DNA of 64,000 nt, from the NCBI GenBank assembly GCA_963706575.1, contig CAVPNL010000004.1, positions 256,001 through 320,000 of the forward strand, written 5' to 3'. This document shows, piece after piece, positions 10,687 to 55,042 of this stretch. Under the pieces are notes generated by a model, which did no database searches, had not been told where the DNA came from, and saw only the letters and a program-made list of their open reading frames with translations. Both the position numbers and the translations under genes were made by a program. Positions within the stretch are counted from its first letter, which is position 1. Every line of letters starts with the position of its first letter. This stretch comes from an uncultured delta proteobacterium (lineage in GTDB: Bacteria; Desulfobacterota; Desulfobacteria; Desulfobacterales; JAHEIW01).

Positions 10687-10748
10687 GATATACGTGGATA
10701 TCAAAAGTTTTGGTGGGTGGTAAATTCCACCGATATGTTGAAGATATC
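10687..10748 (+). repeat. GATAT-N6/7-ATATC site (two units, 45 bp apart)
   Basis: gatatacgtggatatc at 10687 and gatatgttgaagatatc at 10732. Confidence 0.75.
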
Positions 10749-11228
10749 AAAGTTTTCATAGCAGATCCCATCACCACAATATATGGTATAGCCATATAAT
10801 AAGAAAGACGGGGATTTTTATCCTCAATCCAAGCTTTCTAAATCATATGTTTAATTGAACAATGATAGCCGGATGCTACGATTTTAATATGATCAATTTT
10901 TATGCTAATCAATAAATAATCATATCAACAGTTTATTATGCGTTTGCCCGCCACTGCTTGCCATAATCATCTGATATAACGATTAATATTGACATGTTCT
11001 ATAAATTAACCTATAAAATTTTTCTCCAGTTCTTAGTGAAGCGCCCTATTTCACTTAGCTACCCGTTTTTCCCACTTTGTTAGTAGTTTATTGTTTTATT
11101 GACATTTCATTTCAATAGATTGGTTATCTCACATCGTATCTTAGGGGACTATGAAAGAGCAAATATTAAAATTCCCGTTTTAATGCATCAATGGGAACGG
11201 TATTTCACATAAAAGGGATAATTTTTCT

Positions 11229-14200
11229 ATGAAACCGAAAGTGATGCTGATAGGCGAAGTGGTTATTCGATTCTTTATCATTGCCGGATTCAGCCTTGCG
11301 GTCAGTGCAGGCGCGCAAAACCTGCCTAGTGAAATCGGTGGTGAATATGCACTGGGCAAGAACCTTACGGGAGATGAATGCAAGCTGCGACGAGTCCAGC
11401 CGAGAGATGCGGCGGGCGGTAAAGATGAGAGATACTTGCTCCATTGCGAGGGATGGTCGCAGCCGAGCGGTCGGCTAATCGTGTTGCGGCAAAGAAATTT
11501 CCCGATTGCTAGGTTGCTGGAAAAAAGCCCTTGGGCGCAGAATATCCGGGAATCATGCGAGTGTGAGGAACCAAGGGCGGAAACCAGCATCGAGGGCGTC
11601 GAGGCAATGATGCGAAGCTGCCAGCACAGGCTCGGATGGCGTCAGATGATGTTCGTTGCAAAATACGGACGCGACTTCTACCTCGCAGACTTTCTGCCCA
11701 ATAATGCTCCCCTGATCGAACGAGCCATCCTGGTTTCGATCGGGAAGATGAGTACGGACACCTCGGTTTCTCAGGGAAAACGGATGATCGCCCTTCGAGC
11801 GCTGGAGGAGCTTATCGGAAAAGATACGAATCTTCCCTCGATCAAGGAGATCGGCGACGTCGTCGAGCTGATCAATCTGGCACGCCGGCAGCATGAAGCC
11901 CGGCTTTACCGGCAGTCTGAACTGACATGGCAGCGCGTTTTGAAGACCCAAGAAAGATTGTTCGGAATGAACAGCCCTGCGCTAGCGTTCTCGCTGCTGT
12001 ATATGGCCCATCCAGTCCGACACCAGCGCCGGATCGACGATTCTCTGGAACTCGTAAAAAGGGCCGAGCCGTTGGTTTCAAAGTCCCGAAACCCTGACCT
12101 GATCGCGCGTTATTTCAACGATCTTTCCCTGGACGCACATGAGCGGAGGAATCACGAAGCAGCCGCCGCCTTTGCCGAGAAGGCGATCGCCGCCTTTCCG
12201 GCTGATTATACTGACATGAGCATAAACAGGAGCAGGCGAAGGGGCAGAGGCACGGGGGCGCTGGCACAAGCTTACTATAATCTATCGCTAGCCAAGAGAG
12301 GAACCAACGATTACGCCAGCGCCGAAAAAGCGGTGCGAAAGTCGTTTGAGATGTTTAACAAGCTCGAAGGTTTCGACGGTACCTGGACGAACCGGGGCCG
12401 CATGCTGCTAGTAAGAGTCCTTACGGAGCAGAAGAAATTCGACGAGGCCGAGCGTTACCTGGCCGACGCTCTTCGTTCCGCCGAGAAAATGTACGGCCAC
12501 ACGATCTGGTGGGCCAACGCAAAGGTCCTGGAGGCCAGGTTGGCGGAGGCTATGGCCGATCATACCATGGCCCTGGAAGCTTACCGCGCATTTGCCTCCA
12601 TCGCAGCTCGGGAGGAGTTCTCCTGTTTCTATGGCCCGTGCTTCAGCCCCTACCTGGACTTGCTCACGTCACAGGCCGACTCCGACTCTGAGGCTGCCCA
12701 GGCCGCCCTGCGCGAGGCGTTTTCAGTCGTGCAACTGATGGACTTTCCGGTCGTCAGCACGGCGATCAATCAGCTGGCCGCCCGGGTTAGTGCCGGTGAT
12801 CAGGAGATCTCGGCCTATACGCGCGAACAGCAGGACCTGGCAGAGCGGCAGATCCGCCTGCGGGCGGAATTGATGCAGGAAGCTCTGAAGCCCGAGAAAA
12901 ATCGTTCCACGGAAAAGGAAGACACCATCGAAAGGGAGATCCACCAGATAAGGGTGCAGCTCGAAGAACGCGAGCTGAAGTTGCAGGACCGCTTTCCCAA
13001 GTATGCCCAGCTTGTGACCCGCAAGCCGGTGGATGCGCTGCAGATCGCTGAGGTCCTGCAGCCGGAAGAAGGGCTGCTCTATTTTTCACACGTCGGTGAC
13101 AAGGGCTACACGTTTCTGCTGCATCAAGGACGACTTAAGCTCCATGCAGTTAATCTGCCACAAAGGCAACTCAAGCATAGAGTCGCGGCGTTGCGCGAAG
13201 GACTGACCCTGGATGACGGCAAGTTGCGTCCCTTCGACGCTGCTCTTGCGCATGCGCTGTACCGCGACCTTGTCGGTTCTCTTTTGGATGTCCCGGGTTC
13301 AATCCGTCGGCTGGTGATTATCCCGACGGGGCCGCTGCTCAGCCTTCCGCCGGACGTCATTGTCTCTGCAGCGCCGGAAACGACAGAGAAGACGGAATGG
13401 CTACTCCGCCGGTTCAGCATTTTGGTGGTGCCGGATGTGCGCGCTTTTATGAATCTGCGGCGCATCAGCAAATCCGAGATAACATCTACCGAATTTCTCG
13501 GCGTTGGAAATCCGAGGTTTGCCGCCGAAGCATCCGGAACAACCTCTGCGGGGCGGGTAAAAGATTCAGGCACACAGAATCGGGGGCTTCAAGTCGCCGC
13601 CTCTGATCTAAAACTCCCAAACGATCCCTGCCAGGAAAATTGGAATGTCCGTGAACAGGTTGCCGGCCTGACACCGCTCCCCGAGTCTGCTGAAGAAGTC
13701 CGAGTTATGGCAGCTGAACTTGCTGCCGGCAAAGGCACGCTCCTGCTGGGGGAGAAGGCAACCAAGTCCGAACTTCTCAAAGCAGGCCTGGATACGAAAG
13801 CGATTATCGCTTTCGCCACCCACGGGCTGCTGCCGGAAGATCTTTTCTGCGAAAACGAACCGTCGCTGGCGCTGGCGCCCGGATCTCCCGGCGACTTGCA
13901 GGATGATGGTTTGTTGCGGGCGAGCGAGATCTCCGTCATGCGTCTCAATGCAATTCTGGTGATACTGTCGGCCTGCAACACGGCGGGAGCGGACGGGCAG
14001 CTTGGCGGCGAGAGCCTGTCGGGGCTGGTCAGGGCCTTTTTTTATGCCGGCGCAAGAAATGTGCTTGCGACCCATTGGCAGATCGCGTCTCAACCGACGG
14101 TAGAACTCACGACGGGCATGGCGCAGAAAAAGGCACAGGGGCTCACCTGGCCGGATGCACTTCGTGAGAGCAAGTTGCGCATGATGGACAATCCGGTGAC

Positions 14201-14249
14201 GTCCCATCCCTTCTTCTGGGGCGGATTCAGCCTGGTGGGTGGCGGCTAA
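11229..14249 (+). CDS. secreted TPR + CHAT (caspase-like) domain protein
   Basis: Signal peptide, TPR-like helices, IIPTGPL, FATHG (His), LSACNT (Cys), HPFFWGGF end. Confidence 0.9.
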   Translation: MKPKVMLIGEVVIRFFIIAGFSLAVSAGAQNLPSEIGGEYALGKNLTGDECKLRRVQPRDAAGGKDERYLLHCEGWSQPSGRLIVLRQRNFPIARLLEKSPWAQNIRESCECEEPRAETSIEGVEAMMRSCQHRLGWRQMMFVAKYGRDFYLADFLPNNAPLIERAILVSIGKMSTDTSVSQGKRMIALRALEELIGKDTNLPSIKEIGDVVELINLARRQHEARLYRQSELTWQRVLKTQERLFGMNSPALAFSLLYMAHPVRHQRRIDDSLELVKRAEPLVSKSRNPDLIARYFNDLSLDAHERRNHEAAAAFAEKAIAAFPADYTDMSINRSRRRGRGTGALAQAYYNLSLAKRGTNDYASAEKAVRKSFEMFNKLEGFDGTWTNRGRMLLVRVLTEQKKFDEAERYLADALRSAEKMYGHTIWWANAKVLEARLAEAMADHTMALEAYRAFASIAAREEFSCFYGPCFSPYLDLLTSQADSDSEAAQAALREAFSVVQLMDFPVVSTAINQLAARVSAGDQEISAYTREQQDLAERQIRLRAELMQEALKPEKNRSTEKEDTIEREIHQIRVQLEERELKLQDRFPKYAQLVTRKPVDALQIAEVLQPEEGLLYFSHVGDKGYTFLLHQGRLKLHAVNLPQRQLKHRVAALREGLTLDDGKLRPFDAALAHALYRDLVGSLLDVPGSIRRLVIIPTGPLLSLPPDVIVSAAPETTEKTEWLLRRFSILVVPDVRAFMNLRRISKSEITSTEFLGVGNPRFAAEASGTTSAGRVKDSGTQNRGLQVAASDLKLPNDPCQENWNVREQVAGLTPLPESAEEVRVMAAELAAGKGTLLLGEKATKSELLKAGLDTKAIIAFATHGLLPEDLFCENEPSLALAPGSPGDLQDDGLLRASEISVMRLNAILVILSACNTAGADGQLGGESLSGLVRAFFYAGARNVLATHWQIASQPTVELTTGMAQKKAQGLTWPDALRESKLRMMDNPVTSHPFFWGGFSLVGGG

Positions 14250-14440
14250 TGAAAATGATAGGTGTTTTGACTTGTTGAGATGTTAAAAAATATAGAGCTC
14301 GACCTTTCCGAGCACTTCTTGTCATATTACTCTGTGATCAGTACCAAATAACTGGCGTGGTTTAAAAATAGATAGTGTTGATTTTTTGAAATTATGTAGA
14401 ACCCTAGATATTGTGGTTTGCCCAAAACCTAAAAATTGCA

Positions 14441-14549
14441 GATTAATTGAGAATATCACTAAAACAGAAAATCTGTCGTATCATCTTTGATATTTCGAAT
14501 ATTACAACTTGTTCATGGCTTTAAAAATCTTTGATAAGCTGGAGGTATC
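14441..14549 (+). repeat. GATAT-N7-ATATC tripartite site (degenerate)
   Basis: gattaattgagaatatc 14441, gatatttcgaatatt 14489, gataagctggaggtatc 14533. Confidence 0.7.
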
Positions 14550-14554
14550 CAAAT

Positions 14555-14585
14555 AAAAGGCAGAGCCATTGCTGACTCTGCCTTT
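14555..14585 (-). terminator. intrinsic terminator hairpin shared by three modules
   Basis: aaaaggcagagccattgctgactctgccttt; similar hairpins at about 16513 and 47140. Confidence 0.6.
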
Positions 14586-14667
14586 ATAGTTAGTGATAAA
14601 TTCCAGCTAAAAATTTCCAAAAATATGAAAGTTCATAATTTATATCAGAGCCAATAGATCGCAAAGA

Positions 14668-15252: not shown

Positions 15253-15305
15253 TAGTTTCCTCCCTTTCAAATTTTGCTGATTAAGTAAACTGATCTTTTG
15301 ATATT

Positions 15306-15435
15306 GGGGGGCCGGGCCACCCTAATTATTTGACGTTAAGCCACATAAATCATAAAAGCAAGCCGTTAAGCCTAAAAACGGTTCTTTTTTTAGCTCTTTT
15401 TGCAAAATATCAAATCCTTACTACGGGCTGACCCC
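15306..15435 (+). mobile_element. complete 130-bp MITE derived from the RAYT element
   Basis: ggggggccgggccac... left end joined to ...gcaaaatatcaaatccttactacgggctgacccc right end. Confidence 0.8.
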
Positions 15436-15456
15436 GTTCGATTTTTTCGACAGTCT

Positions 15457-19153: not shown

Positions 19154-19363
19154 AATAACATTCTCCTTTCTTAAAATTTTCAACGTCGCAAACTGGAGGA
19201 TGCCACTCTGACAAATGGGTTGTTCCCTCAGAAAGAAACCGTCCCGACTATATAGGTCGGGACTTAATTGATTGGGTGGAACATAATCCTTCTTTAGGCC
19301 AATAGCAAGCTAATTATTGATCTTTTTAAGCGGAATACTCAGATTAGGTTATTTCAAAACCTT

Positions 19364-19380
19364 GATATGTTGGAGCTGTC
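19364..19380 (+). repeat. GTTGGAG-core unit of the GATAT site
   Basis: ttcaaaaccttgatatgttggagctgtcaaaggtttt. Confidence 0.6.
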
Positions 19381-22752: not shown

Positions 22753-22770
22753 TATGTCCTGTTGTTTACT

Positions 22771-23959: not shown

Positions 23960-24533
23960 AATAACCTCCTTTTATCATGTTGCTTCTATTGAACATTCTG
24001 TTTTTTTCTGTTTTTGCTTTTTAAATACCTCACCGTATACGAAATAAGGCTATTGTCAGTTGGCAGGAAGGATGACACAATTAAAAAGACCCTCGAATAC
24101 GAAACAATTACATAATTACTCCCAACAAAACATCCAAGTTTTGTTAAAAGCAAAATAGGCACATTTTAGAGGAATGCCCATCTAATATTTACCTAATTTG
24201 CTTAAAGTTGAAAATGAAACCAGTACCTATTTCATCAAGAGGGGCAAATCAGGTGTTGAGTAGGTCAATCAACAGACGAATGTGAATAGCAGAGTGATTT
24301 GTCGGTGAAATATAATTTGAGATGTGAAATTGAACTTCTGGAAGCGCACAATTATTAAACTAATATTTGAAAACCGAAATAAATGTCAATAATAATCGAT
24401 TTATCCGTCAAATTTCAAAGGGTATTGTCAAGCTTTTATATATTGGAAACACAACTATTGCAATCTTTGGTGTCAAATTGTATAGAAAAAGGGGAGATCC
24501 TTTTACCCCCTTTTCCGTATTGAATTGTAAATT

Positions 24534-32904: not shown

Positions 32905-33042
32905 AGTTAACCTCCTATCAATTGAATATGAATCAAGAACACATAAGCCCACCTTCTCCCATTATTAAGGCGTTACTTCCCCATAACAAAAAAAGCCGCG
33001 CCACCCTGTTTTCCAAGGTAACCCGGCTTCCTATCCGACATC

Positions 33043-33117
33043 TAGGCAACCCGGCTATCTCTTTGAGACCCGTGGCTTTCCGTCCCCTTCTCACAAAGGG
33101 TTTGGCTTTGTCATGGA
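33043..33117 (-). promoter_or_regulatory. c-di-GMP-I (GEMM) riboswitch
   Basis: Minus strand AAAGCCAAACCCTTTGTGAGAAGGGGACGGAAAGCCACGGGTCTC...AGCCGGGTTGCC, followed by a GCCG...CGGC-U7 terminator (about 32989-33030). Confidence 0.9.
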
Positions 33118-33251
33118 ATTAATTGTTTTTTTAACGATAAAAATTAATTTGCAAATATGCGTACTTTATATGTATCGGCATTTCTAAAATTAACTTTAGA
33201 AAAATTTTTACAATTCAAACTTCTTCCAAAGATCGAATATCAGCCAATTCC

Positions 33252-33312
33252 AGATATGAGAGTATCACCAAAACGGGGAACTTGTGATATCATCCCTATT
33301 CTTGATGATATC
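33252..33312 (+). repeat. GATAT site variant
   Basis: agatatgagagtatcaccaaaacggggaacttgtgatatc; nearly identical to 49910-49955 and 48870-48902. Confidence 0.7.
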
Positions 33313-34717: not shown

Positions 34718-34996
34718 AATAAAATGCATAATCGTTACAGGGGACGCTTGTGACGGGTGCTGAATTCAGACCTGAAGGTTCTCTCAGCAAACCCAAGTTT
34801 CTATGATACCTTCAAAGTGACACCGAATGAAACTTTAGGCAATTTTACAGATATGAAACGGATATCAGAAGAATTTTCAGGCTTCGAAAAGCTGTTGTTA
34901 GTTGGTATCTTAAAATCTAACGAAAAACTCAGCTTCGCTAATTACCGTATCAATTGCTGTGCTGGGTTAGCCCTTGATTTAAATATGGACCCATCA

Positions 34997-36043: not shown

Positions 36044-36133
36044 ATTTCAGCCTTTCAAAGCATTCCAAGTAATTCTCTAATCAGGTGAGCGCTTACCAAT
36101 ATCGCCACGCATCACAGAATACAGATATATTGA

Positions 36134-36241
36134 GAGACTGTCGAAAAAGTCCCAAAATGGTGATTTTAGTAATTTCGCATGCAATGAAATCAATAATTAA
36201 CAAACACCAATTTTACGGATTTTGGGTTTTTCGACAGTCTC
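36134..36241. mobile_element. 108-bp IS1182-type MITE inserted in a GATAT site, TGA duplication
   Basis: gatatattga-[gagactgtcgaaaa...ttttcgacagtctc]-tgagagtatc. Confidence 0.85.
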
Positions 36242-36347
36242 TGAGAGTATCTTAATGGCTCAGCGACTTGCATACAATGTCCGCTACAATCGCTTGTTAA
36301 GCAATAAATCGATTTTCCTCAGCCGGGGCCGCTCGACCAAACAAGGG

Positions 36348-37611: not shown

Positions 37612-37692
37612 GATTTATTGAGAATACCTGAAAAATACCTAAACTACAGATATGCCAGAATATCACAACATTTTTAAGACTTCAAAAACCTT
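37612..37692 (+). repeat. GATAT tripartite site, units 1 and 2 (unit 3 continues at 38247)
   Basis: gatttattgagaatacc 37612, gatatgccagaatatc 37649 (37 bp apart). Confidence 0.8.
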
Positions 37693-38246
37693 CTTGAAAA
37701 CTGATCTTTCATCGAAGATACAAAAGTTGCAATGGTACTGTGATCGGGCCGCTGGTTGCCAGACAGCGCCATAAAGGTCACGTTCTCACAGCAGGCCCTT
37801 TCAATTTGCCGCGAGGATATCAGCCCCCGCGCGTAAGCCAACAATACCACTTTTAACAAAATCTTAGGATCATAGGCACTGCGGCCTGTCTCGTCATTTT
37901 TGTAGTTGCCCTCAAATACCGACATGTCCATGCGCGTCTCAATGAGCATATGGATGGCAAACTCCAAACTGCCGGGCACCAGTTGCTCCTCTAATGAAAC
38001 CGGGATTAAAACCTTTTGGGAATAATCATAACGCTTAAATTTGGCCATTAATTTGTCCACTCCATATTTGCCTGGTTGTTGTATCAGAAACTAATCTATA
38101 CCTAGCAATAGGACTAGACATTGTCAAACGAAAAAATACAAGGATAGCCGATATTTGCGGGATATTGTTTGGAGCTTTGAGTGGGATAAAAAATTATAGA
38201 TCTTATAGAAAAACCACCTTCAATTGATACCTTTTTCGACAGTCTC
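37693..38246 (-). mobile_element. truncated IS1182-family element (N-terminal transposase fragment from 38048 + one end)
   Basis: GRSAYDPKILLKVVLLAY..GLISSRQIE..C..N..F..L...PDHSTI; end ttttcgacagtctc at 38246. Confidence 0.85.
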
Positions 38247-38390
38247 TGGAGATATCAAAGGTTTTAAAACCGTAATGAAACCCGTGTTACATAGAAGCAG
38301 TTAGCAACGACTTATATCTTACCAATGATTTGATTATATTGATTATTTCAGGCTCGTATGAGTTAACAAATCGGCTTGTTTGGGCATCTT

Positions 38391-40527: not shown

Positions 40528-40727
40528 ATTACCCTCCAAATTTTGAGTTGGGCATTTAATATTGCGAAGTGGGTTAAATGATCAGTTTTGATAATCAATA
40601 GTTCAAGATATTTACCATTGCACCAGTGTGACGTCAACTTTTGATGAGAATATCACAATTTTGGCAATTTTAAAGATATCAGCGGTGCTAAACAAGATGC
40701 ACGACATTTCACAGAAGGGGCGGTTTA

Positions 40728-40979
40728 TTATTCGTTGGACTTGACCGGCGTCACTTTGCCCACAGCATCGAGCCAGCGGATTAGTAGGGATGGTGAAGAA
40801 CGATACCAGTTATCTTTGAGGTCATGGGCTGAGGGTGGAGCAACACGACACCAGGCACCATCAGAATACCGGATTAAGGAAACGCCGTCTAAGACCATCC
40901 GAACACTGCCGTCACCATATTTAGAAACTCGTCGTGCCATTTTCACGCTCCTGTTTAGGGGGGATGATTGAGGATACAT
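40728..40979 (-). CDS. hypothetical protein
   Basis: ORF; probable start MARRV after AGGAG. Confidence 0.4.
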   Translation of the reverse strand: MYPQSSPLNRSVKMARRVSKYGDGSVRMVLDGVSLIRYSDGAWCRVAPPSAHDLKDNWYRSSPSLLIRWLDAVGKVTPVKSNE

Positions 40980-41206
40980 AAGGGACTTACATTTTAACTT
41001 AATCAGTTTTTTTTCAAATTACAAGGCTTGGTTGGGCGGTCGCCGGTTAATCCTTGCGGACTGGGGTTCTTTTTTTTACCTCACCCAGCCACTTGGCCCA
41101 ATATCAAATAAAAAACCCTATCAGAAGTAACTGACAGGGCGATAAGTTCTTTGACAACCTGCTGGGACTGAGTCGCTTATGGATCAGTCCCAATTCCCAT
41201 TCTTGG

Positions 41207-41572
41207 TTGTGATATAAAAGCAATATCACAAGAATTTCGGAGATTCAAAACTACAGGTTGGAGTAACATGCAATTTTAGAATGTAAAGATATTTTGGTTT
41301 GCCAGATGATATCCACAACTATCAGCGTTTGTTACGTATAGATAGCAGTCTACAATTCAGCCAAAGTTTGGATTCCAACCATTAATATAAAACTTTGAAA
41401 AGATGCTTAAATAGCAGATTATTACAATTGTGATAAAAAATGAATATCGCAAGTTTTTCAGAGTTTCAAAACCTTTGATATGTTGGATATCAACGGTTTT
41501 GTAGAGCGTTTATTCATGTGATTTTTGCAGATAGTTGAAAAGGTTTTTGCCCTCTGATATGTTTACAGTATC
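41207..41572 (+). repeat. cluster of GATAT units with no gene between them
   Basis: ttgtgatataaaagcaatatcacaa (unit 41211), units at 41432 and 41477 (45 bp apart), unit at 41556. Confidence 0.75.
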
Positions 41573-43989: not shown

Positions 43990-44046
43990 TATTAATTGAG
44001 AATACCTGAAAAATACCAGAAGTGCAGATATCGTAATCTGATATCA
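43990..44046 (+). repeat. GATAT site (units 37 bp apart)
   Basis: tattaattgagaatacctgaaaaataccagaagtgcagatatc. Confidence 0.75.
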
Positions 44047-44053
44047 CAGGTTT

Positions 44054-44353: not shown

Positions 44354-44446
44354 TTGTTCATCTCCTCCGCTTGATAAGGTCGCCGATAATTTAATCTTAG
44401 AAAACATGCGATTACTTGCAAGTATCCTACGTTGGCATCAACCTGT

Positions 44447-44498
44447 GATACATTGATAATATCACCAACACAGGAAATTTCAGATATCAAGCGATATC
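44447..44498 (+). repeat. GATAT site (units 36 bp apart)
   Basis: gatacattgataatatc 44447, gatatcaagcgatatc 44483. Confidence 0.7.
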
Positions 44499-45231
44499 CT
44501 AAAAACAAAACCCCACCTCTCAATTTGAGAAATGGGGTTCTGGAAATAAAAACATAATACCCTCCGGTAAAGGGTTATTATTTATTTTTTTTCGTACTTT
44601 TGAAGGGCTTCATGCATTCAGCGTCTTATAGCCTCTAAGCGTGTATTATTTCGGAAAGTTCTAGATAGTACTTACAATTTGAAAGATCTATCTTGCTCTA
44701 AATCGTCCATTGTTTTTGAATATTTAGCTTTAGATGATTGACCAATTTTTGACAATAAACCGATTAGCAGGTAGGTCAAGGTCAGAAAAAGTATAATCGC
44801 TAAACTAGCAAATATTATGATCTCAAATTTTGGCATTATTTACCCTCAACAAAATATTTAATGCTTAACAGTATCATAAATTATATGTAGTTTCTATAGA
44901 CTAATTTTGGTGATTGGTCTTTATTAAACCATTGGAAAAAAGGGAGGGATGTCATTTGTCTTCTCCAAATCGGACTCCTGGTAAACTTAAAACAATGCTC
45001 CACAATACCGAAAAAACTCTTTCAACGCCGTTTTAAGCGATTAAAATTCGTTCTGAAGAGTTAATGGGGGAAACGGATAGTTTCTTTGGTAATTTTTTAA
45101 CAAGATTTAAACTAAAAACTTTTCGACAATTTGAGGGGCAGGATCGTTTAGATTTTGTCCCTATTCCCTTCTTTAATTGTGATATAAAACGTGTATCACA
45201 ACTTTTTCAGAGATTCAAAAGTGCTGATATG

Positions 45232-47087
45232 GTTAAGTGGCGCAGGGGGATTTCACCCCTACGCTCTCCAAGATCCGTACGTGACAGTCTCCCGTCATAC
45301 GGCTCCTACTGTCCAGCCGTCGGCCGAAAGCCAAATTCCCAAGTCGCAATTAGTCTGGGTTCACGGCGTGCAATGCGACCTAACCAATGGGTCGCCTTGA
45401 GCCAGTGGCCTCTCAGCCTTTTGTATTTCCGCATCGCCCAACGAACCAAGGCATACTGAAGCTGACGGAGTATGGGACGCAATGCTGATTTGTAATATTT
45501 GCCATAATAGTTTAACCAACCCCTAATCACAGGGTTGATTCGACTGGCAATATCCTCTAATGAAGATGAGCTCCATAAATGCAACTTCCAGCCCCTTATC
45601 GTAGCACTCATCGCTTTGATCGCTGATTTGCTCACCGCTGGTGTAAAACCCACAAAATAGTTGCGACCTTTACAGTCGCGCGGTCGAAAGCAGTAACCAA
45701 GAAAATCAAAACTCTCATGCTTATAGTTTCCGGGGCGTCTTACATCCTTACAATAGACAATTTTCGTCTTCTCCGGATGCAATTGCAACTTGCAGCGTGC
45801 CAGCCGTCTTTCAATGACCTTCAGCATGACCTGCGCCTGAGGTTCTGTACGACAGTGGACAATAATATCATCCGCATATCTTGCAAATGGTGTACTCGGA
45901 TAATTCACCCGCATCCACTCATCAAACGCGTGGTGAAGAAAAATATTGGCCAGCAGGGGGCTTATCACTCCCCCTTGGGGTGTGCCCTTTTCTGTTTCGA
46001 TGAGACTACCGTCCTCCGATTGTGCCGGAGCTTTCAGCCATCTCTCGATGTAGAGCAGCATCCACTTGCTGTCCGTATGCTTCTTCACCGCGTACAACAT
46101 CAGCTCATGGTCAATGTTATCGAAGAACCCCTGTATGTCCAGATCGATCACCCAGTTGTACCACCAGCACCTTTTGCGAACCACGCCAACTGCATCCAGT
46201 GCTGATCTGCCTGTTATGTAACCATAAGAATCCGGGTCAAAAATCGGCTCTACATCGGGCCCCAGACACATCTTGACCACCATCTGCGCCACGCGATCCG
46301 ATACGGCTGGTATACCCAACCTTCTGGATCCCCCATCGCTTTTGGGTATGTCTACCGTGCGCACCGGCGGAGGAAAATAACTGCCCGAGGACATCCGATT
46401 CCAGATCTTATAAAGGTTGTCCTTGAGATCAACCTCAAAATCTTTGATCGACTGCCCATCGACTCCCGCAGCACCTTTGTTCGCCTTTACCCGACGATAG
46501 GCTTCCCAAACCACCTGCTTGGAAATACTAAACGACTTTGTTTTAGTAATAGGCTCCTCCCATCTCTGGTTGACCGCATCGCTAAAACCAGACAGCACAA
46601 CTCCTTCGCTCCACCTGCATTACACAGACTTCCTCACTACTACGAGTTGTTCCGCCCCCGTGTCCCGCATCGGTACTCTCACGCTTGTGGGTCCTCCACT
46701 TGCGTTTCTCCCTTAACATCGGAACGACAGGTTCCCACGTTCCGCACAAAAGCCTGGATCAAGTTCATGCCATCTCTATGCCGGACGCCGCCCAGACAAT
46801 AAACAGGCTCCCTCTGGGCTTTTCCTGCAGACCTCCAAGTATCCGCAGTTTTGACGACATCTCAGATATTTCGACACCTCATCAATGGTTCGCTTGTGCT
46901 CATCTCCTTGATCCATACCTGACACAGTCTTGGCCATGCCTTGCCCTTAACGCTCACCACAACGGCTCTTTACCGATGCAGCTTAAGGTGGTTTGAAGCC
47001 TGCTCCTGCAAGCCGACTCCGAAGGGCCCTCCTTCATCTTCCGTGCAGTTACGCACACTTTATATTAAAAGTGCGCTCGTGGCGCAC
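45232..47087 (-). mobile_element. group II intron (bacterial class D / RmInt1-like)
   Basis: 5' GUGCG at 47087; domain V GAGCCGTATGACGGGAGACTGTCACGTACGGATC and domain VI ending ...ACTTAAC at 45232; removing it restores gctgatatg|ttggagaaatc. Confidence 0.92.
45306..46550 (-). CDS. ltrA: group II intron reverse transcriptase/maturase (no endonuclease domain)
   Basis: VKANKGAAGVDG, GTPQGGVISPLLAN, RYADD, INPVIRGWLNYY; the codon after GGAGGAG is ATT (46550). Confidence 0.9.
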   Translation of the reverse strand: MTKTKSFSISKQVVWEAYRRVKANKGAAGVDGQSIKDFEVDLKDNLYKIWNRMSSGSYFPPPVRTVDIPKSDGGSRRLGIPAVSDRVAQMVVKMCLGPDVEPIFDPDSYGYITGRSALDAVGVVRKRCWWYNWVIDLDIQGFFDNIDHELMLYAVKKHTDSKWMLLYIERWLKAPAQSEDGSLIETEKGTPQGGVISPLLANIFLHHAFDEWMRVNYPSTPFARYADDIIVHCRTEPQAQVMLKVIERRLARCKLQLHPEKTKIVYCKDVRRPGNYKHESFDFLGYCFRPRDCKGRNYFVGFTPAVSKSAIKAMSATIRGWKLHLWSSSSLEDIASRINPVIRGWLNYYGKYYKSALRPILRQLQYALVRWAMRKYKRLRGHWLKATHWLGRIARREPRLIATWEFGFRPTAGQ

Positions 47088-47192
47088 TTGGAGAAATCAC
47101 AAGTTTCTGCTTTCCGAATAAAAGCCAAAATGGAAATAGCAAAAGGCAGGGCCTTGACGACCCTGCCTCTTTTCTGATTTCTTAGTTATGGT

Positions 47193-47717: not shown

Positions 47718-48095
47718 TTACCTCCTTTTTGTGTAGGTGTCGCGTAGGGTTACGTTCTTTTCAAATGGTCATTTTGTCTCCTAACAGAACAGCTACATCT
47801 GTTAGGAGAAAGATTGGCACATTTTGAGTGGTATCTCCATTTCACTTTTCCCGAATATTTGGGTTAAAGTTCGTGGGAACCGGAGTCTATATGAGTGGCG
47901 AAAGCATATTAGAATTTGCAGAGTCGCTCAGCAGGCGAATGTGAAAGGGAAAGAAAACTGATAATGAAAATGAATTTTAGATAGGAAATTGAACTTCAGG
48001 AAGCACGCAAATAACAGCCTTATATTTGATACCAGATCTAAATGTCAAGCGAAATGCATTTATTTGTCAGATTTCACAAGCTGATGTCAGGTTTT

Positions 48096-48194
48096 GATAT
48101 ATTGAGAATACCTGAAAAATACCGAAAGTACAGATATGCCAAAATATCACAACTTTTTTATGTCCCTAAAAACCTTTGATAAGTTGGAGAGTAC
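48096..48194 (+). repeat. complete tripartite GATAT site (units at 48096, 48133, 48178)
   Basis: gatatattgagaatacc / gatatgccaaaatatc / gataagttggagagtac; spacings 37 and 45. Confidence 0.85.
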
Positions 48195-48207
48195 CAGATA
48201 TATGGAT

Positions 48208-48264
48208 TCTTAACGGCTGAATGGAGCGGCGCTGTCAAGCGTTCGCTCCCATGATGTGTTAGGA
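48208..48264. other. attC-like hairpin
   Basis: TCTTAAC-ggctga-ATGGAGCG...CGCTCCCAT-gatgt-GTTAGGA. Confidence 0.5.
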
Positions 48265-48759
48265 TTTATTATATTTGACCAATGTAAAAGGCTATCCACG
48301 TTATTTTAAGATGACTTACTACCGTTCCGTGAACTTCCCCGATCCGAAGCTCATGAGCTGACACTGCTGTCTGGCCATCTCAATAATCTCCTTTTTCGTC
48401 ATGTCGCCACCAATGGGCTGTTAGGTGTAGTGAGTGAATGGGGTTTTTAATGCTGCCGGCCCTATGGATTTTACGCAACAGGCACCTTATCCAAACCTTA
48501 GTGAGCGAATTCTTTTAATGAGATCCCCCTGAGACCTGGGCGCCGGTCCTGCCGGGTGATTGAATGTTGGACGAGCCAGTTTTACATGCAAATACGAATA
48601 AGCATATTAATACGACTAAAATTATTTTTTTCACGGCCTTTCTCCTATTTTATTTTTTGTCTTTGTATAAAATTGAGCATCAAAAAGAAAACAACTAACT
48701 ATAAATATTTGGCTAAAGACCTTCGTTGTCAATTGTTATTTCAGGTGGTGATATATTGA

Positions 48760-48867
48760 GAGACTGTCGGAAAACCTAAAATGTGTGTTTTTAGTGCCTC
48801 TAAGTACTTGATATTACTATACCCGAATTTTGGAAAATGGTTGAAATTAGACTTTTTCGACAGTCTC
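48760..48867. mobile_element. 108-bp IS1182-type MITE inserted in a GATAT site, TGA duplication
   Basis: gatatattga-[gagactgtcggaaa...ttttcgacagtctc]-tgagaatatc; orientation opposite to the 36134 copy. Confidence 0.85.
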
Positions 48868-48905
48868 TGAGAATATCACTAAATCGGGCAACTTGTGATA
48901 TCATT

Positions 48906-49829
48906 TCAATTTTTTCCGGTTTTATTCCAATGCTCTATCAAAAGAGGAACGATTTTTTCCGGCTGATCTTCTTGGACAAAATGCCCAGCCTCTGAAATTT
49001 TATTGAAATCAACATTAGCACCTCTTTTAGTTAATCTTGCGTGCATATCTTTCCCAATCCATAGTGGAGCAAAACGATCATTTTCTCCCCAAACCAGCAT
49101 TATACTAACTTGATAAGAGTTGGTAGGCCTTTGCAAAAATTGCGTTTTATTTTCAGGCAAAATCAAGGACAAGTGTGGGATTTGTTGCAGGGCTAAAGAT
49201 TTTGCCATATTTTTATATAGTTTGATCCAATACCGGGTTGATTCGCTGTCACAGAACATTTCAAAATAACTTTTTAGAACTTTTGGGTCTAATCTGCTCG
49301 AATCATTAAACGATCGTATCATTGCAAATTTGAAGAACTGTTTGGGGAACCATTTAAACGCTATTTTTGGCAGCAGTGGAATGTTAAGAAAAATTAAGTG
49401 CCACATACCTGACAAATCGGTCTTCCAAAAGTTCGTATTCATAACAGTGGCGGATATAAGTGATTGAGGTTTAAATCTTGCGGTTTGCAGAGCCAATGCA
49501 CCGCCCCAATCATGTCCGATAAAATGGTATGATGGAAGTTGAAGGGTTTCAACAATGGTTTGGTGGTCTTCATATAGCCTGCTAATAGAAGCCTCTCCTG
49601 ACTTTGAACTCTCTCCAAAACCTCTTAAATCATAAGTTATAAGCCGAAAGCTTTTTGTAACGGCATCCGGCAAACTTGATATCAAATGGTCCCAACAATG
49701 ATGATTTTCGGGAAATCCGTGAACAAATACCAACGGCATTGCTTCATTTTTAGTGTCCCAAAGAGCAATTGTTACTCCATCATCCATGGTGATGTATTTC
49801 CTAAAAAAATTAACTTTACTCAACATCAT
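48906..49829 (-). CDS. alpha/beta hydrolase (epoxide hydrolase-like)
   Basis: HGFPE, DLRGFG, GHDWGG, AGHFVQED. Confidence 0.9.
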   Translation of the reverse strand: MMLSKVNFFRKYITMDDGVTIALWDTKNEAMPLVFVHGFPENHHCWDHLISSLPDAVTKSFRLITYDLRGFGESSKSGEASISRLYEDHQTIVETLQLPSYHFIGHDWGGALALQTARFKPQSLISATVMNTNFWKTDLSGMWHLIFLNIPLLPKIAFKWFPKQFFKFAMIRSFNDSSRLDPKVLKSYFEMFCDSESTRYWIKLYKNMAKSLALQQIPHLSLILPENKTQFLQRPTNSYQVSIMLVWGENDRFAPLWIGKDMHARLTKRGANVDFNKISEAGHFVQEDQPEKIVPLLIEHWNKTGKN

Positions 49830-49986
49830 AAACTCCGAAGGTTATAAACAAGAGTGTAATGCAAGTCTTTGGATAATCGCCAGATAAACAATTGTCAGCC
49901 AATTACTGATATATATTGAGAGTATCACCAAAACAAGGAACTTGTGATATTATCCCCATTTTCTGAGAACAGTATCTCAATAATAG

Positions 49987-50154
49987 TTAACTTTTTTTTG
50001 AAGTTACCGTCTGAAAGGATGAAATTTGTTGCTTCAATTTTTTGGCTTTACACTTTGGGCAACTGTATTTTTTCTTTTCATATTCGGCAATAGAAAGGAC
50101 TATGCTAAAAGACTTTTTACATTTTTCACAGAAGAACTCATATGTGGGCATCAT
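49987..50154 (-). CDS. FmdB-family zinc ribbon protein (55 aa)
   Basis: Own translation MMPTYEFFCEKCKKSF...SCPKCKAKKLKQQISSF; AGGAGG RBS. Confidence 0.85.
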   Translation of the reverse strand: MMPTYEFFCEKCKKSFSIVLSIAEYEKKKYSCPKCKAKKLKQQISSFQTVTSKKS

Positions 50155-50363
50155 ACACCTCCTTTTGTTAGTGTTTTAAGCAGATGTACTCAGTATGTGG
50201 ATTATTTGAAGGAGCGCAAAAATCAGATGAGAACCAGATTCGATTCCGTAGTTTGAGAACCGCTCCAGACCAGTTGGAATAGCAGGATCAGGTATAGGTT
50301 GTTCGAATTTATATCCAAATCGATGGGCTTTTTCAATCAAAATTCAGGATTCTGGAAACTGGC

Positions 50364-50462
50364 GATATATTGAGAGAAACCCAAATATCGTAATTTTACA
50401 GATATGCTAAAATATCACAACTTCTCGAGGCCGGTCAATTTTGCCGATATGTTGGAGATATT
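50364..50462 (+). repeat. complete tripartite GATAT site (units at 50364, 50401, 50446)
   Basis: Same 37/45 spacing as 48096-48194. Confidence 0.85.
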
Positions 50463-50502
50463 CGCAGCTGCTCGGATAGACCGCGCCACTTTTTGGAGAC
50501 GT

Positions 50503-51441
50503 TCATTTTTTATTAAGTATTTCTCGAAAAGTTTGCTCCCGAAACATCGAATCGGCCAAACGCACATTGGGCATATGCAAACAATTATTTAACACCTTAG
50601 GACCATGAATGGATAACAATTCAGGTTTTACATTCACATGTGGCATACCTCCTTGCGCGTCGTGCAAACTTTCCCACTCAACCATAACTAAATATTCTGC
50701 AGGTACCGTATAGCCCTCCCAGACATCTGCAGTGCGTTGCAGTTTGCTACCTGAACTATTCTTAAGTTTTTCCAGCATGGATTCAACAGTGGCATGTCCA
50801 CTTCCTAGAGTTGAAAGGCCAATCCGCTTGAGGATCTGGCAGCCGACCATACCCGTGGATTCTCTAAGTTTTCCCATAGTTGCAGTTTCGCCGGCTTCAA
50901 ATTCCTCTTCTTGGCCTGGACGGACTTTGTGCAAAGCCATAACGGTGACAGTTTGTCCCGAATCCACTGCGTAACCATCAGATTCCCCAGCTGCACTCCT
51001 CCTTAACCATTGATTCATTGAGATAAGCTTGGGCAAATCACTGTAAACAACTCGATAGATGGGTTCTTCTGGGCCTTCTAATAATACATCACCGCATTTC
51101 GCACACGTATCGACAACTACGTCCTCAAATGTTTCATGAAAATTCTCATGCGCCTCCCACGATTCCCAGTAGGTAAACTGATCAATCCAAATATGAGAAA
51201 GTCGATCGCCCATGTCTGAGCTCGCGCCCCATCGCATACCCATGGGGCATGCGCCGATTTGCTTCATTAAATCGAAGCCTTTAAACCCGGGTGTTAGCGC
51301 TGTAGCAAGACACATTTTAGAACTGGCCTGCTTCATCATTCTCATTAAGTCGGGATCGTTGTTAACTAAAACGCGGTTAATTGCAACATACAGTGGTGAC
51401 TTAGGTTCAGCATCAAATAATTGTTTTACATTTGCTTTCAT
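50503..51441 (-). CDS. sor: sulfur oxygenase reductase family protein
   Basis: YVAIN, KMC..TA..PGF.GF, W..WEAHENFH, CAKC, GPEEPIY, H.V.PG.E..FE, YLVMVEW, FREILN align by eye with the SOR motif order. Confidence 0.8.
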   Translation of the reverse strand: MKANVKQLFDAEPKSPLYVAINRVLVNNDPDLMRMMKQASSKMCLATALTPGFKGFDLMKQIGACPMGMRWGASSDMGDRLSHIWIDQFTYWESWEAHENFHETFEDVVVDTCAKCGDVLLEGPEEPIYRVVYSDLPKLISMNQWLRRSAAGESDGYAVDSGQTVTVMALHKVRPGQEEEFEAGETATMGKLRESTGMVGCQILKRIGLSTLGSGHATVESMLEKLKNSSGSKLQRTADVWEGYTVPAEYLVMVEWESLHDAQGGMPHVNVKPELLSIHGPKVLNNCLHMPNVRLADSMFREQTFREILNKK

Positions 51442-51609
51442 AATTTTAACCCACCTTTCCAATAAACAATAAGGTAACGAAATAATTTATCTCTTTTACG
51501 GATATAGATATGATCCCAAGCAAAAAACGTTTCTGGGATGCGATATACTTATTAAGTGAGTTTTTCTTAATTTAGTATATTTTGTATAAAAAATATTTGG
51601 GATCTAACT

Positions 51610-51879
51610 TTATTTCAGGATACCATATTTCTTCAAATTGGATTTTATATAGGGCCAATGCAAGACAATATGTACTGCGATCACAACTATGAATATCAAT
51701 GCAGCCCATTCATGAAGGGCAATAAAAAAATGTCTTAAAGAAACCGAAAAACTTCCCCTGGCTTCATATCCCCTTGGCAATACAAGCCAATTTAGCAAGC
51801 CAGTGCTGAATAAAACAATAAAGAGGATAAAGGATATTACGTTGACTATCCAAAGCTTTGAAGATCTTCCATTAGACAT
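51610..51879 (-). CDS. DUF4405 family membrane protein
   Basis: TGLL.W, LHEW..., HIVLHW. Confidence 0.8.
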   Translation of the reverse strand: MSNGRSSKLWIVNVISFILFIVLFSTGLLNWLVLPRGYEARGSFSVSLRHFFIALHEWAALIFIVVIAVHIVLHWPYIKSNLKKYGILK

Positions 51880-52027
51880 TCGCTTCTTTCAATTAATTGC
51901 ATTATTTATAGAGGTTGATTTAGTCCGGAAAGTTCACATTCTCATGAAAAATTTATCTTTTGTTAGGTTGCTTAGTCTGGAATAAATACAGAATAATTGC
52001 CAGATACCAAAAAAATCATCCGATGGC

Positions 52028-52070
52028 GATATATTGAGAGTACATGCATTTTGGCAAAATTACAGATATG
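52028..52070 (+). repeat. GATAT site (units 37 bp apart)
   Basis: gatatattgagagtaca 52028, cagatatg with gatat at 52065. Confidence 0.7.
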
Positions 52071-52090
52071 CACTCTAACGCCATATCTCC

Positions 52091-52399
52091 TTAATTAAAA
52101 ATTAGAATGGCAAAGCCGATTCCGAATCCTATTAATGGAACAATATATTTCAGATATTTCTCTTTAACTCCAGTTTTTCCGCTCAACAGCCTCCCTCTAT
52201 GGTTGTGTATTCTTACCAGGATACTAAGGAGATAAAAGCCAACGCAACAAATTGCATAAATGGCAATATTAGCTGCTTCAGGAAATCTATCAAAATATAT
52301 AAACAAAAATGAAAGCAATAAACCCGAAGTAAAAGAAATAATAAGCCAACTAAACTCATTATTCCAATTCATACGATCGGTTTTTTCGTCATAGCCCAC
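52091..52399 (-). CDS. small membrane protein (3 TM)
   Basis: Hydrophobic segments; lies between two GATAT sites. Confidence 0.6.
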   Translation of the reverse strand: MGYDEKTDRMNWNNEFSWLIISFTSGLLLSFLFIYFDRFPEAANIAIYAICCVGFYLLSILVRIHNHRGRLLSGKTGVKEKYLKYIVPLIGFGIGFAILIFN

Positions 52400-52487
52400 T
52401 GAATATCCACCTTAGATGTCGCCATACATGATAAATGGCAGTTCACACATGCTTATTCAGACATATAACAGCCATACACCAGGTTGT

Positions 52488-52875
52488 GATACATTGAGAG
52501 AAACACAAATATCGCAATTTTACAGATACCATATGGATATCTGCACCGTATCGCATTTTTAAATCTGCTGTCAAATTGAAGTCCCGAAAAATGAGGCTTT
52601 GAGACAATAAAAAGGGCAAATCCATAGGATCGGATTCACCCTTTTGAGTTGTGATTTAAAGCGAATATCGCAGGAATTTTCAGATTTGATATCTACCGTT
52701 TTGTTAGAGTAATCGCAGCTATTTAAAGGCAAATTTTATTACCAAAAAATAGCAGACACCTAAAAGATGGCTCTCTTGTGATTAGTTTACAATATCTGAA
52801 AATATGAGGATGCAAGATACTTGGTTTTTATTGTTGATATCTGTAATTGTGGCGCATCTGCGATATGTTGGTACC
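52488..52875 (+). repeat. cluster of GATAT units
   Basis: Units at 52488, 52525, 52653, 52780, 52816, 52862. Confidence 0.7.
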
Positions 52876-52934
52876 ACAACTGTTAGAAATGCTGGCAAGC
52901 GACTGTTGTATATAGCAGTATTTCATTAAGTTAA

Positions 52935-54815
52935 TTAATCAGGCAGACCCGCCTTGCGGAGTGCCCCTAACCAGCGGTTTTTTAAATCAGCATCCTTAAA
53001 TGGATTTACTTTTCCAGCATCCTGCTCTACGGAAAAATTTGGTTTAATCCGCAAAACTTCGGCAGCAGCTTCACGTGCTTTGGTCTCATTGCCCGACATC
53101 TGATATGCATATGTTAGTCCCCAATAGGCAAAGAGATAATCGGGATTACGTTCTATAGCCCTATTCCACAACGGTATCGCTTTTTCATACTGTTCAGAAA
53201 AGGCATAGGCAAAAGCCAGGTTGTTCAGATACATGAGAGGTGAGACAGGATTGAGGCGGATGGCCTTTTCAAGATATAAAATGGCTTCGTCATAGCGACC
53301 GGTGAACCTTAAGACCATCCCCATAAAAAAATGATCTACTGCAGAGTTGGGACTTAATTCGACGGCCTTTTGCGCCTCGATGATGGCCTTTTCATGTTCG
53401 TTTCTCAACAGAAATACCATGCCAAGCAATCGATGCGTGACGGTATCTTGACCGGACAAATCGATGGCCTTCAGAGTCAACTGTTCCGCTGTTTTAATCG
53501 ATTTGGCGCGATCTTTTGTCCTATTGAACCAGACATCGTCCAGATGTGTATGTGCCAGAAGAGTATAGGCACCCCCATATTCGGGATCAAGGGTAATAGC
53601 TTCTTGCGCCAACCTTCGTGCCTCAATTGTATCTGCTGTTGTTCTACGGTACAAGTGTTCATTCCCTTTTAGAAACTTCTCATAGGCTTTAAGATTGGTC
53701 GTTTTTATCGAGGAAAACCGGCCCCAGTCTGCCTCTGAAAGTTCCACTTGCATTGCAGCCATGATTTTCATCGCGATTTCATCCTGCAGGGCAAAGATAT
53801 CCGTCACCTTCCGGTCGTAATTTTCCGCCCATAAATGGTGCCCTGTTGTTGCATCAATCAGCTGAACCGTGATACGCACGCGATCATCAAATTGCTGCAC
53901 ACTACCTTCGAGCACATACCGAACTGCCAGTTCTTCTGCAATTTGCTGAATTTTTACAGGTTTTCCTTTGTAAGCAAACGTGGAGTTGCGGGCAATTACA
54001 AGAATATAAGGAACCTTTGAAAGTGACGTGATAATTTGTTCGGTGATTCCGTCGCTAAAATACTCCTGCTCGGAATCGCCGCTCAAGTTGTCAAACGGAA
54101 GTACGGCAATAGAGGGCTTATCCGGCAATGGATACGCCATCTTCTCCACAGAGGCAGGCTCTATTCGCTTAGATTGTTCGATGTATAAATACCATCCTGC
54201 TAATCCGATGAGAATAACCACAGCAGCGGCAACGGCCACCCACCTTTTTGTTTTCCTCTTTTCACCAATGATCTTGCCGACGGCTTCCGGTTCCATTAAA
54301 ACTTTATAGACACGCACCGGCGCTGCTATGTTTTTAACGCTGTGTTCACCTAAATATTCATAACCCAGTTCAAGTTTAGTTTTTAGCTGGTCGTAGGCGG
54401 TCCCTGAAATGCAAATGCCGCCTCCTTCTGCCATGCCTTCCAGGCGGGCAGCTATATTGACCCCGTCGCCGTAAATTCTGTTATCTTCCTCAACAATATC
54501 ACCCAGATTAACGCCGATTCGGAATAACATCCGTCGGTTCTCCGGCAAATCAGCATTTCGTTCACTCATCTCTTTTTGGGTTTCAACAGCACACCTGACC
54601 GCATCCACGACACTGGAAAATTCTGCCATAAGATTATCACCGGTCATATCAACTACTCGTCCACTGTGTTGCTCAATTAGAGTGGACATCGAATTACGGT
54701 AGGTGTTTAAGGTTTGGATTGTCGTTTCCTCATTATCTTCCATCAAGCGGCTGTAACCGACAACATCGGCACTGAGTATGGCGGCGAGTTTACGTTTAAA
54801 ACCTTCTCCTGCCAT
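52935..54815 (-). CDS. class III adenylate/guanylate cyclase with TolB-like and TPR domains
   Basis: ADVVGYS, GDNLMA, RIGVNLGD, GDGVNIAARLE, KPSIAVLPF, TPRs. Confidence 0.92.
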   Translation of the reverse strand: MAGEGFKRKLAAILSADVVGYSRLMEDNEETTIQTLNTYRNSMSTLIEQHSGRVVDMTGDNLMAEFSSVVDAVRCAVETQKEMSERNADLPENRRMLFRIGVNLGDIVEEDNRIYGDGVNIAARLEGMAEGGGICISGTAYDQLKTKLELGYEYLGEHSVKNIAAPVRVYKVLMEPEAVGKIIGEKRKTKRWVAVAAAVVILIGLAGWYLYIEQSKRIEPASVEKMAYPLPDKPSIAVLPFDNLSGDSEQEYFSDGITEQIITSLSKVPYILVIARNSTFAYKGKPVKIQQIAEELAVRYVLEGSVQQFDDRVRITVQLIDATTGHHLWAENYDRKVTDIFALQDEIAMKIMAAMQVELSEADWGRFSSIKTTNLKAYEKFLKGNEHLYRRTTADTIEARRLAQEAITLDPEYGGAYTLLAHTHLDDVWFNRTKDRAKSIKTAEQLTLKAIDLSGQDTVTHRLLGMVFLLRNEHEKAIIEAQKAVELSPNSAVDHFFMGMVLRFTGRYDEAILYLEKAIRLNPVSPLMYLNNLAFAYAFSEQYEKAIPLWNRAIERNPDYLFAYWGLTYAYQMSGNETKAREAAAEVLRIKPNFSVEQDAGKVNPFKDADLKNRWLGALRKAGLPD

Positions 54816-55042
54816 AACGGCACCTCCCTTTTAGGGTTTCAAACAGAGGAACTCAGTATGTGGGCTATTCAAAGGGGCGCAAAAATCAGATGAGAAATCG
54901 GATTGGATTCAGTTGGTGAAGCATCGCTTCAGGACTGTTGGAAAAAGAGAATCAGGGTTTGGTTAGATGTATTTATATCCAAATCGATGGGTTTTAGTCA
55001 ATAAAATAAGGATGTTTGTAGCTGGTGATATATTCGGTACAT

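Follow-up and report, generated by a model that had tools for sequence, protein, structure and literature searches.

Three-core junctions between unrelated gene modules in a Desulfobacterales genome, and a candidate small tyrosine recombinase nested in related sites

Sites and gene modules in the window

Given the co-oriented palindromic repeats that part unrelated genes in the genome of an uncultured delta proteobacterium (Desulfobacterales; assembly GCA_963706575.1), we analyzed these sites, and a candidate tyrosine recombinase for them, in the source genome and its relatives. The stretch in question, 64,000 nucleotides of contig CAVPNL010000004.1 and called the window below, is C4:256001-320000 of a 5.67-Mb source genome that is 92% complete in 25 contigs; C denotes contigs of this genome, G the genomes of relatives and L recombinase or site loci. 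The cargo of the window, as assigned by Pfam, includes CHAT, Ysc84, mandelate racemase, MreB, PilZ, alpha/beta hydrolase, sulphur oxygenase reductase (SOR), KhpA, zinc ribbon (FmdB-type) and cyclase genes, in agreement with the bordering modules that an earlier note had named from the letters of the window.

A full junction is composed of three units, numbered 1 to 3. All 16 of the 16 unit spacings quoted in the earlier note proved exact when re-measured in the window, with 36-37 bp from unit 1 to unit 2 at 9/9 places and 44-46 bp from unit 2 to unit 3 at 7/7. Perfect GATAT-N6/7-ATATC motifs occur eight times in the window, compared with a mean of 0.155 and a maximum of 3 in 200 dinucleotide shuffles. 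The unit-1 12-mer (at most one mismatch) is found 10 times on the + strand and never on the - strand (shuffle mean 0.33), and the unit-3 12-mer 5 times on the + strand and never on the - strand (shuffle mean 0.2). The proposed tripartite architecture therefore stands, far above shuffled expectation. Its regularity holds for the spacing, which is fixed, but not for the units themselves, most of which are imperfect, with unit 2 spacers of 6 to ~17 bp. Two details had to be revised: the arms, first put at 5 bp, extend over ~14 bp (AAAA-N5-GATAT), and the site at 52780, first taken for a unit 1, carries GTTTACA, a fourth core shared with the site at 41556. Several units are also split by insertions that the first description did not mention, namely an intron, IS1182 and a MITE (miniature inverted-repeat transposable element). 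The repeats are real and not ordinary, and they belong to no described family.

Anatomy and distribution of the sites

Each unit consists of two inverted ~14-bp arms flanking a 7-bp core, the inner arms being conserved and the outer arms weak. Inverted arms around a short core are the layout of tyrosine-recombinase core sites. Cores were tallied over those sites of the source genome and its relatives that have enough flank (142 unit 1 and 131 unit 3), all found through profiles built on the same motifs: ATTGAGA occupies 104/142 unit 1 copies and GTTGGAG 82/131 unit 3 copies, and the unit 2 core is variable, with AAAATGA as its commonest form (15/115).

Profiles of the unit 1-2 and unit 2-3 halves gave 38 and 33 matches in the source genome at E<0.01, and 46 and 44 at E<=1, a threshold at which the reversed genome gave 1 and 0. 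The 80 cores kept are spread over 10 contigs, grouped as 20 clusters or lone sites. They are intergenic, with a single core (1/80) inside an open reading frame (ORF) of at least 150 aa, and the single orientation noticed at the outset extends genome-wide, 59/60 neighbouring sites being co-oriented. Cargo ORFs between sites lie on the strand opposite to the sites in 67/79 cases, compared with 801/1498 in the flanks. A tie between site orientation and replication was considered and rejected (12 versus 9 clusters, no bias, weak skew). Both profiles match 24/24 other genomes of the family and 3/16 genomes from other families, and the unit 1-2 profile matches 12/151 genomes across the order.

Flanks switch at the cores

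Copies of a 352-bp zinc-ribbon module at C1:3920 and C1:174490 share 98.7% identity, and their flanks switch exactly at unit-1 cores on both ends; the same module begins at window position 49910 and has a further copy at C1:177808, among the matches listed. Window positions 40652-41254 recur at C4:351180-351782 with 94% identity, from unit 1 to unit 3, between different flanks. From unit 2 onward, the module behind 52028 has a counterpart of 98% identity in G018 with a different unit 1-2 linker, and C8 and G004 have in common a module that starts at the unit-3 core. One far flank was shared at >=75% by 32 site pairs; both flanks were measurable in 28 of these, which are not independent of each other, and in 0/28 were both shared. 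Linkers in the repeats concerned are only ~65% alike, and the flank switches lie no more than a few bases from the cores. Module order is not kept across sites and the breaks fall at the cores, the outcome foreseen for a recombination system. Compared with the 24 relatives, the 36-55 kb stretch yielded no matching piece longer than ~2 kb.

Contigs from four sediment assemblies of four studies were also compared with the window, with little weight given to joints having sides under ~40 letters. One 899-base contig (X1 record 4) runs from 44411-45231 through TTGGAGG to 48199, across an intact unit 3, and is without the group II intron and the next module (the 45.2-48.2 kb segment). Another tracks 48894-49914 and departs at unit 1, and two sediment studies contain a joint between unit 2 copies (48903 to 49964, side 33). 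We read these contigs as alternative arrangements of the array. Joints at which a contig goes back carry other core letters and are not evidence of circles.

Unit 2 as the only crossover point was rejected, as breakpoints are also found at units 1 and 3, and all three units appear to be exchange points. The switching of flanks at identical cores suggests that crossover takes place inside matching spacers. Of the gene-acquisition platform proposed earlier, the shuffling arrays are supported; the idea of one platform beside one integrase is not, given many arrays and 20 clusters or lone sites genome-wide. Deletions of 4-6 bp were also observed next to cores (window 33250, 40638 and 41257; C4:351170), possibly as scars of imprecise exchange or of IS excision.

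A small tyrosine recombinase nested in the units

Ten tyrosine-recombinase matches were found in the source genome, and one family, of 278 aa, sits within units in relatives. The order there is unit 1, unit 2, promoter and ribosome-binding site (RBS), gene, terminator hairpin, unit 2' and, 38-39 bp on, a core (unit 3), giving an autonomous element of ~1.2 kb. The gene is nested in units at L147, L159, L154, L178 and L181, and inspected loci hold a single recombinase gene between RBS and terminator. The candidate lies outside the window, where the earlier note had placed it, its role as the enzyme being predicted. The protein matches PF00589 and PF14659, comprising a core-binding and a catalytic domain with no arm-binding domain, and the R-H-R-H-Y set is kept in 30/32 fully covered copies, including that of the source genome; stops interrupt 5/30 copies having the full catalytic set. 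In a structure model (pLDDT 78) the best match was XerA (5hxy), and archaeal XerA is closest, from which we take the protein to be a simple Xer-like tyrosine recombinase. Its family is large, with 4289 database matches at E<=1e-30 that are labelled only 'integrase'.

A +1 shift is needed to read 26/33 of the genes, after codon 17-19, and in 21 of the 26 it falls at a run of nine A (A9). The copy of the source genome, its only one of this family, is located on C18 (~107741-108580), away from the large arrays, and retains all five residues and the A9 run; it has a unit 1 on its upstream side and an inverted one downstream. At L147 (G023:C1:204124-204957), the A run is of 8, the gene is in frame and Cys replaces the catalytic Tyr; this fits selection against an unregulated enzyme, in one case only. 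Inverted unit 1 and inverted GTTTACA units also stand behind recombinase genes (downstream in L159; at ~107450 on C18), and such units could permit gene inversion.

Window positions 52606-52788 align to the 3' flanks of two G023 copies, L147 and L159, at z 16.6 and 37.5 against mononucleotide shuffles, and by the same measure 9/32 3' flanks match the element at z>=4. By this alignment, 52488-52720 is the recombinase element minus its gene. This 230-bp gene-less element, which retains the promoter region and terminator of the 278-aa gene, has 6 full-length copies in the genome and 16 matches in relatives' loci, and the junction itself is best read as a remnant of a recombinase-carrying element.

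Leaders and outward promoter-like sequences

At 13/32 loci, the 100 bp upstream of the recombinase gene include a TTGAC[AG] directed away from it, compared with 1, 3 and 3 of 30 in controls, and the motif is present in 6/6 gene-less copies. In the gene-less element of the window, the outward -35/-10 pair lies at 52574-52545 on the - strand. Promoter-like sequences directed outward at units 1 and 2 would, if active as their motifs suggest, explain why cargo lies on the opposite strand.

A leader of ~180 bp runs from unit 1 to the cargo gene and comprises a promoter-like TTGA(C/A)-17/18-TATAAA, an untranslated stretch and an RBS. Judged by N-termini, it is fused to unrelated ORFs, including zinc ribbon, cyclase, dehydrogenase-like and other genes. 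Unit 1 stands beside the leader in 30/36 matches, from relatives' loci chosen for holding sites and from the source genome, where the count is 7/7 with one recognized through a variant core added to the pattern. The leader was also considered as a structured RNA, and this was rejected, as 12 sequences gave no consensus pairs. Another conserved leader-like stretch is found beside unit 1 at window 47923-48090 and 24264-24452, with 4 matches in the genome.

Insertions in the cores

Three parasites are inserted in cores: a group II intron, IS1182 and a two-recombinase unit. At 45232-47087 the group II intron interrupts a unit 3 between G and TTGGAG, and the loop TTGGAG of its domain I hairpin is complementary to the end of the 5' exon. 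Related introns take the same position in 4/8 other loci with true matches and lie elsewhere in units in 2, in a set of loci biased towards sites. Among the matches listed, the ends of IS1182 and its MITE in the source genome fall at unit 1 or unit 3 type cores in 13/16 cases, with TGA or TGG duplicated, and a full 1853-bp IS1182 copy lies within a unit 3 at C1:180724-182576.

The two-recombinase unit, of 2.1 kb, occurs in two copies in unit 3 that are 99.4% identical and have the GTTGGAG core as a 7-bp direct repeat, among the matches listed; a further unit of this type is inside a unit 1 (L092). It was the first lead as owner of the sites and was demoted because its family, which has its own end repeats, uses many other, unrelated cores without GATAT arms. 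These units may be specialised parasites of this system. The cores ATAGCAG, ATTGAGA and GTTGGAG of two-recombinase units (L025, L016, L041, L092, L001) also end single-recombinase elements (L164, L166, L168, L180, L183).

Features of the array and its surroundings

Table 1. Sites, insertions and related features of the array, in window coordinates
Position	Strand	Feature
10687..10748	+	Unit 2 - unit 3 half junction; first site of array
14441..14549	+	Full junction: unit 1, unit 2 with long spacer, unit 3
19352..19380	+	Lone unit 3; homology to CspA module at C18:90279-90798 stops here
33250..33305	+	Unit 1 (left half with short deletion) - unit 2; adjoins khpA
34850..34910	+	Unit 2 and a degenerate unit 3
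36124..36251	+	Unit 1 split by 108-bp IS1182-type MITE (36134-36241, TGA duplicated)
37612..37700	+	Unit 1 - unit 2 and part of unit 2-3 linker
37701..38263	-	Truncated IS1182 (to 38246), then right half of unit 3
40638..41268	+	Unit 1-2 ... unit 2-3 module
41325..41348	+	Orphan end of two-recombinase unit: inverted repeat and core ATAGCAG
41432..41493	+	Unit 2 (core AAAATGA) - unit 3
41556..41572	+	Unit with fourth core GTTTACA
43990..44050	+	Unit 1 - unit 2; end of PilZ gene just behind
44447..44498	+	Unit 1 - unit 2
45181..45231	+	Unit 2 and left portion of unit 3
45232..47087	-	Group II intron with RT/maturase (45306-46598), within unit 3
47088..47105	+	Right part of intron-split unit 3
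48096..48194	+	Full junction
48750..48905	+	Unit 1 split by MITE (48760-48867), then unit 2; hydrolase gene end 48906
49910..50154	+	Unit 1 - unit 2 left arm and zinc-ribbon (FmdB-type) gene 49987-50154 (-)
50155..50355	-	Conserved ~180-bp leader, from unit 1 into cargo gene
50364..50462	+	Full junction
52028..52075	+	Unit 1 - unit 2 left arm
52488..52720	+	Gene-less recombinase element: unit 1, unit 2, outward -35/-10, terminator hairpin, unit 2', core
52780..52880	+	GTTTACA unit - unit 2 (long spacer) - unit 3
54816..55043	-	Second leader copy before cyclase gene; variant unit 1 (ATTCGGT) 55027-55043, last array site

Among the cargo, the SOR gene (50503-51462) stands out as cargo in an apparent sulfate-reducer lineage, and the CHAT-TPR gene (11229-14249), at ~58% GC and on the + strand, is an exception to the cargo orientation. 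The window also contains two c-di-GMP-I-GGC riboswitches that are 90% identical (33041-33115 and 55823-55897), two REP-associated tyrosine transposase-like genes in near-identical repeats (56050-56847 and 58772-59563), non-coding repeat families related to the REP-associated transposase repeats (6393, 7826, 10406, 15297 and 39494) and RHS/YD-repeat and NHL protein fragments (60383-63966). A multi-copy inverted-repeat element of ~155 bp, unrelated to the junctions, was found at G000:C14:133214-133370 and many other places, among the matches listed.

Comparison with known systems

The arrays share with integrons and CALINs, as these are described in PMC3053210 and PMC3001079, the one-way succession of unrelated genes with a repeated site between them, a tyrosine recombinase oriented away from the cargo with an upstream promoter-like sequence aimed at it, and a group II intron in the bottom strand of the site, comparable to the IIC-attC introns that parasitize integrons (PMC3001079). 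They differ in the enzyme, since the genome has no IntI: 0/15 of its matches to the IntI model TIGR02249 passed the cut-off (best 85 bits, cut-off 265), and among the genomes searched with this model true IntI occurs only in G007 and G023. The small recombinase, of 278 aa, reaches 44 bits against the same cut-off of 265, matches model positions 15-179 only and is nearest to archaeal XerA. The junction also forms no attC-type stem-loop with extrahelical bases, the attC features being those given in PMC3053210 and the judgement being made by folding, with no attC model; 6/7 junctions folded no better than z -1.7, and the junction at 41432 (z -4.4) folds via back-to-back arms and not around a GTT/AAC pair. 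No Rfam family was found at the junctions at gathering scores. In addition, three cores stand here at fixed spacing, there is no single attI beside an integrase, many arrays occur per genome with the recombinase copy on C18, and the cargo keeps long leaders. An attC-like hairpin was seen at window 48208-48266, 14 bp behind a unit 3 (z -2.2/-2.8), and unit 3 copies in L107 and at C4:221679 are likewise followed by similar hairpins; integron cassettes may have been taken up as cargo, although the genome is without IntI.

Identity with dif or pdif was rejected: what we take to be the canonical host dif lies elsewhere, at C2:141712, and its arms differ from AAAA-N5-GATAT around 7 bp. Together with the IntI search and the junction folding, this bears out the earlier view that the site is neither attC nor dif. 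Acinetobacter dif modules are alike in exchanging by spacer crossover that needs like spacers (PMC13141974) and in being hunted by a dedicated family of comparable parasites, IS1202 (PMC10132070). The pdif sites are 11+6+11, with XerC and XerD arms, in alternating orientation and on plasmids (PMC13141974, PMC10132070), unlike the ~14+7+14 units in co-oriented (59/60) triplets described here, which are chromosomal and have their own recombinase candidate. In its working the system resembles an integron, and its need for like spacers matches that of dif modules, but it lacks what defines either.

Three phased two-arm subsites are characteristic of res sites and are also seen here. A serine resolvase acting at res was rejected, however, as PF00239 was not found in the 92%-complete genome and breakpoints fall at three units rather than one. 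Shufflons (PMC3414803) likewise have many sites for one recombinase; the sites here differ from those of shufflons and res in being direct, not inverted, with the cargo genes whole. RIT, BIM, Tn554 and GInt elements (PMC3414803, PMC8138268, PMC5385486) are mobile elements run by simple tyrosine recombinases, and GInts carry varied cargo and excise as circles; these elements need two to four genes, in contrast to one small gene and multi-core junctions in tandem arrays here. IntDes differs from the 278-aa protein in having an arm-binding domain and altered catalytic residues (PMC8138268). No description of the system was found in the literature, mostly non-subscription papers without supplements; family tables of PMC8138268 and PMC3414803 could hold the protein family.

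Proposed mechanism

We consider it probable that the small recombinase binds the arms and that like cores recombine, excising or inserting the stretch between co-oriented like units. Because the overlaps differ (ATTGAGA, variable/AAAATGA, GTTGGAG, GTTTACA), like would recombine with like. A stretch between two units of the same core and direction would leave as a circle and enter another like unit, in an exchange predicted to act on double-stranded DNA. By homology, the 230-bp gene-less element may have arisen through gene loss from the autonomous element, and joining of unit 2 to unit 2' may then have produced the 100-bp 1-2-3 junction. Capture of new cargo probably takes place where junctions insert at weak look-alike sites flanking a gene on either side, in keeping with the poor conservation of the outer arms. 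The conserved +1 slip at the A9 run may keep enzyme levels low. The cores serve as landing pads for the intron, IS1182 and the two-recombinase unit, as their insertions show. More broadly, we lean towards a Desulfobacterales gene-capture and shuffling system of its own kind, with a frameshift-controlled recombinase, three or four mutually exclusive cores (a natural cassette exchange), portable outward promoters and its own site-hunting parasites. The geometry, the breakpoints, the nested gene, the conserved slip site and the parasites are direct observations.

Alternative explanations

Several results weigh against this proposal. The enzyme role and the excised circles are inferred from sequence; the breakpoint pairs are few and not independent, and most contig joints are short-sided and may stem from other organisms. 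The 5' flanks of the recombinase match the gene-less element at z>=4 in only 3/31 cases, the C18 copy has only its unit 1 sites and flanks unlike the gene-less element (z -0.2 and 1.8), and a generic promoter scan did not call the leader promoter. The gene was found in 7/24 site-bearing family genomes and not in the other 17/24, two of them 97% complete; across 151 genomes of the order the gene occurs in 34, the unit 1-2 profile in 12 and both in 6. Most gene copies in other families are without these exact sites, which may reflect diverged sites or loose coupling.

This distribution bears on the possibility that the core exchanges are real and made by another enzyme, the host XerC/XerD or the two-recombinase unit, with the 278-aa gene as a passenger. 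XerC/D-like genes are present in 5/5 relatives searched and in the source genome, and two-recombinase units sit in unit 3 with the core repeated and in a unit 1 (L092). We nevertheless hold this to be rather improbable, since the arms of the presumed dif are unlike the junctions, the two-recombinase family has its own end repeats and many cores without GATAT arms, and the promoter region and terminator retained by the gene-less element are those of the 278-aa gene. Other tyrosine recombinases near sites in relatives (phage-type and, presumably, IS91-type) showed no constant link. It is unlikely, if slightly less so, that a small tyrosine-recombinase transposon left the junctions as relic, MITE-like ends accumulated in tolerant islands, exchange being a by-product of homologous recombination or IS activity. 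Degenerate, deleted or interrupted units, lone sites, the stops in recombinase copies with a full catalytic set, and IS1182 and introns in the same spots would all suit such relics; the relic reading would leave unexplained the switches within a few bases of cores amid linkers only ~65% alike, the strict co-orientation with opposite-strand cargo, and the fusion of a single leader to many unrelated ORFs next to unit 1. That the palindromes are transcription factor operators is very improbable and largely refuted by the breakpoints: sites do lie upstream of opposite-strand genes and next to promoter-like motifs, but the cores are asymmetric and conserved, their orientation is fixed, the distance to the next start codon ranges from 78 to 1985 bp, and the gene context is not kept across relatives, with DNA breakpoints at the cores.

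Significance

Should recombination of like cores by the 278-aa recombinase hold, an enzyme with several natural, mutually exclusive 7-bp cores would be of possible use in cassette exchange. The exon-binding loop of the intron, which matches the core, is an independent sign that the site is old and is treated as a safe landing place. Having neither IntI nor attC, the system would escape integron finders, and it would represent an independently built solution to the task of the integron in abundant sediment sulfate reducers.

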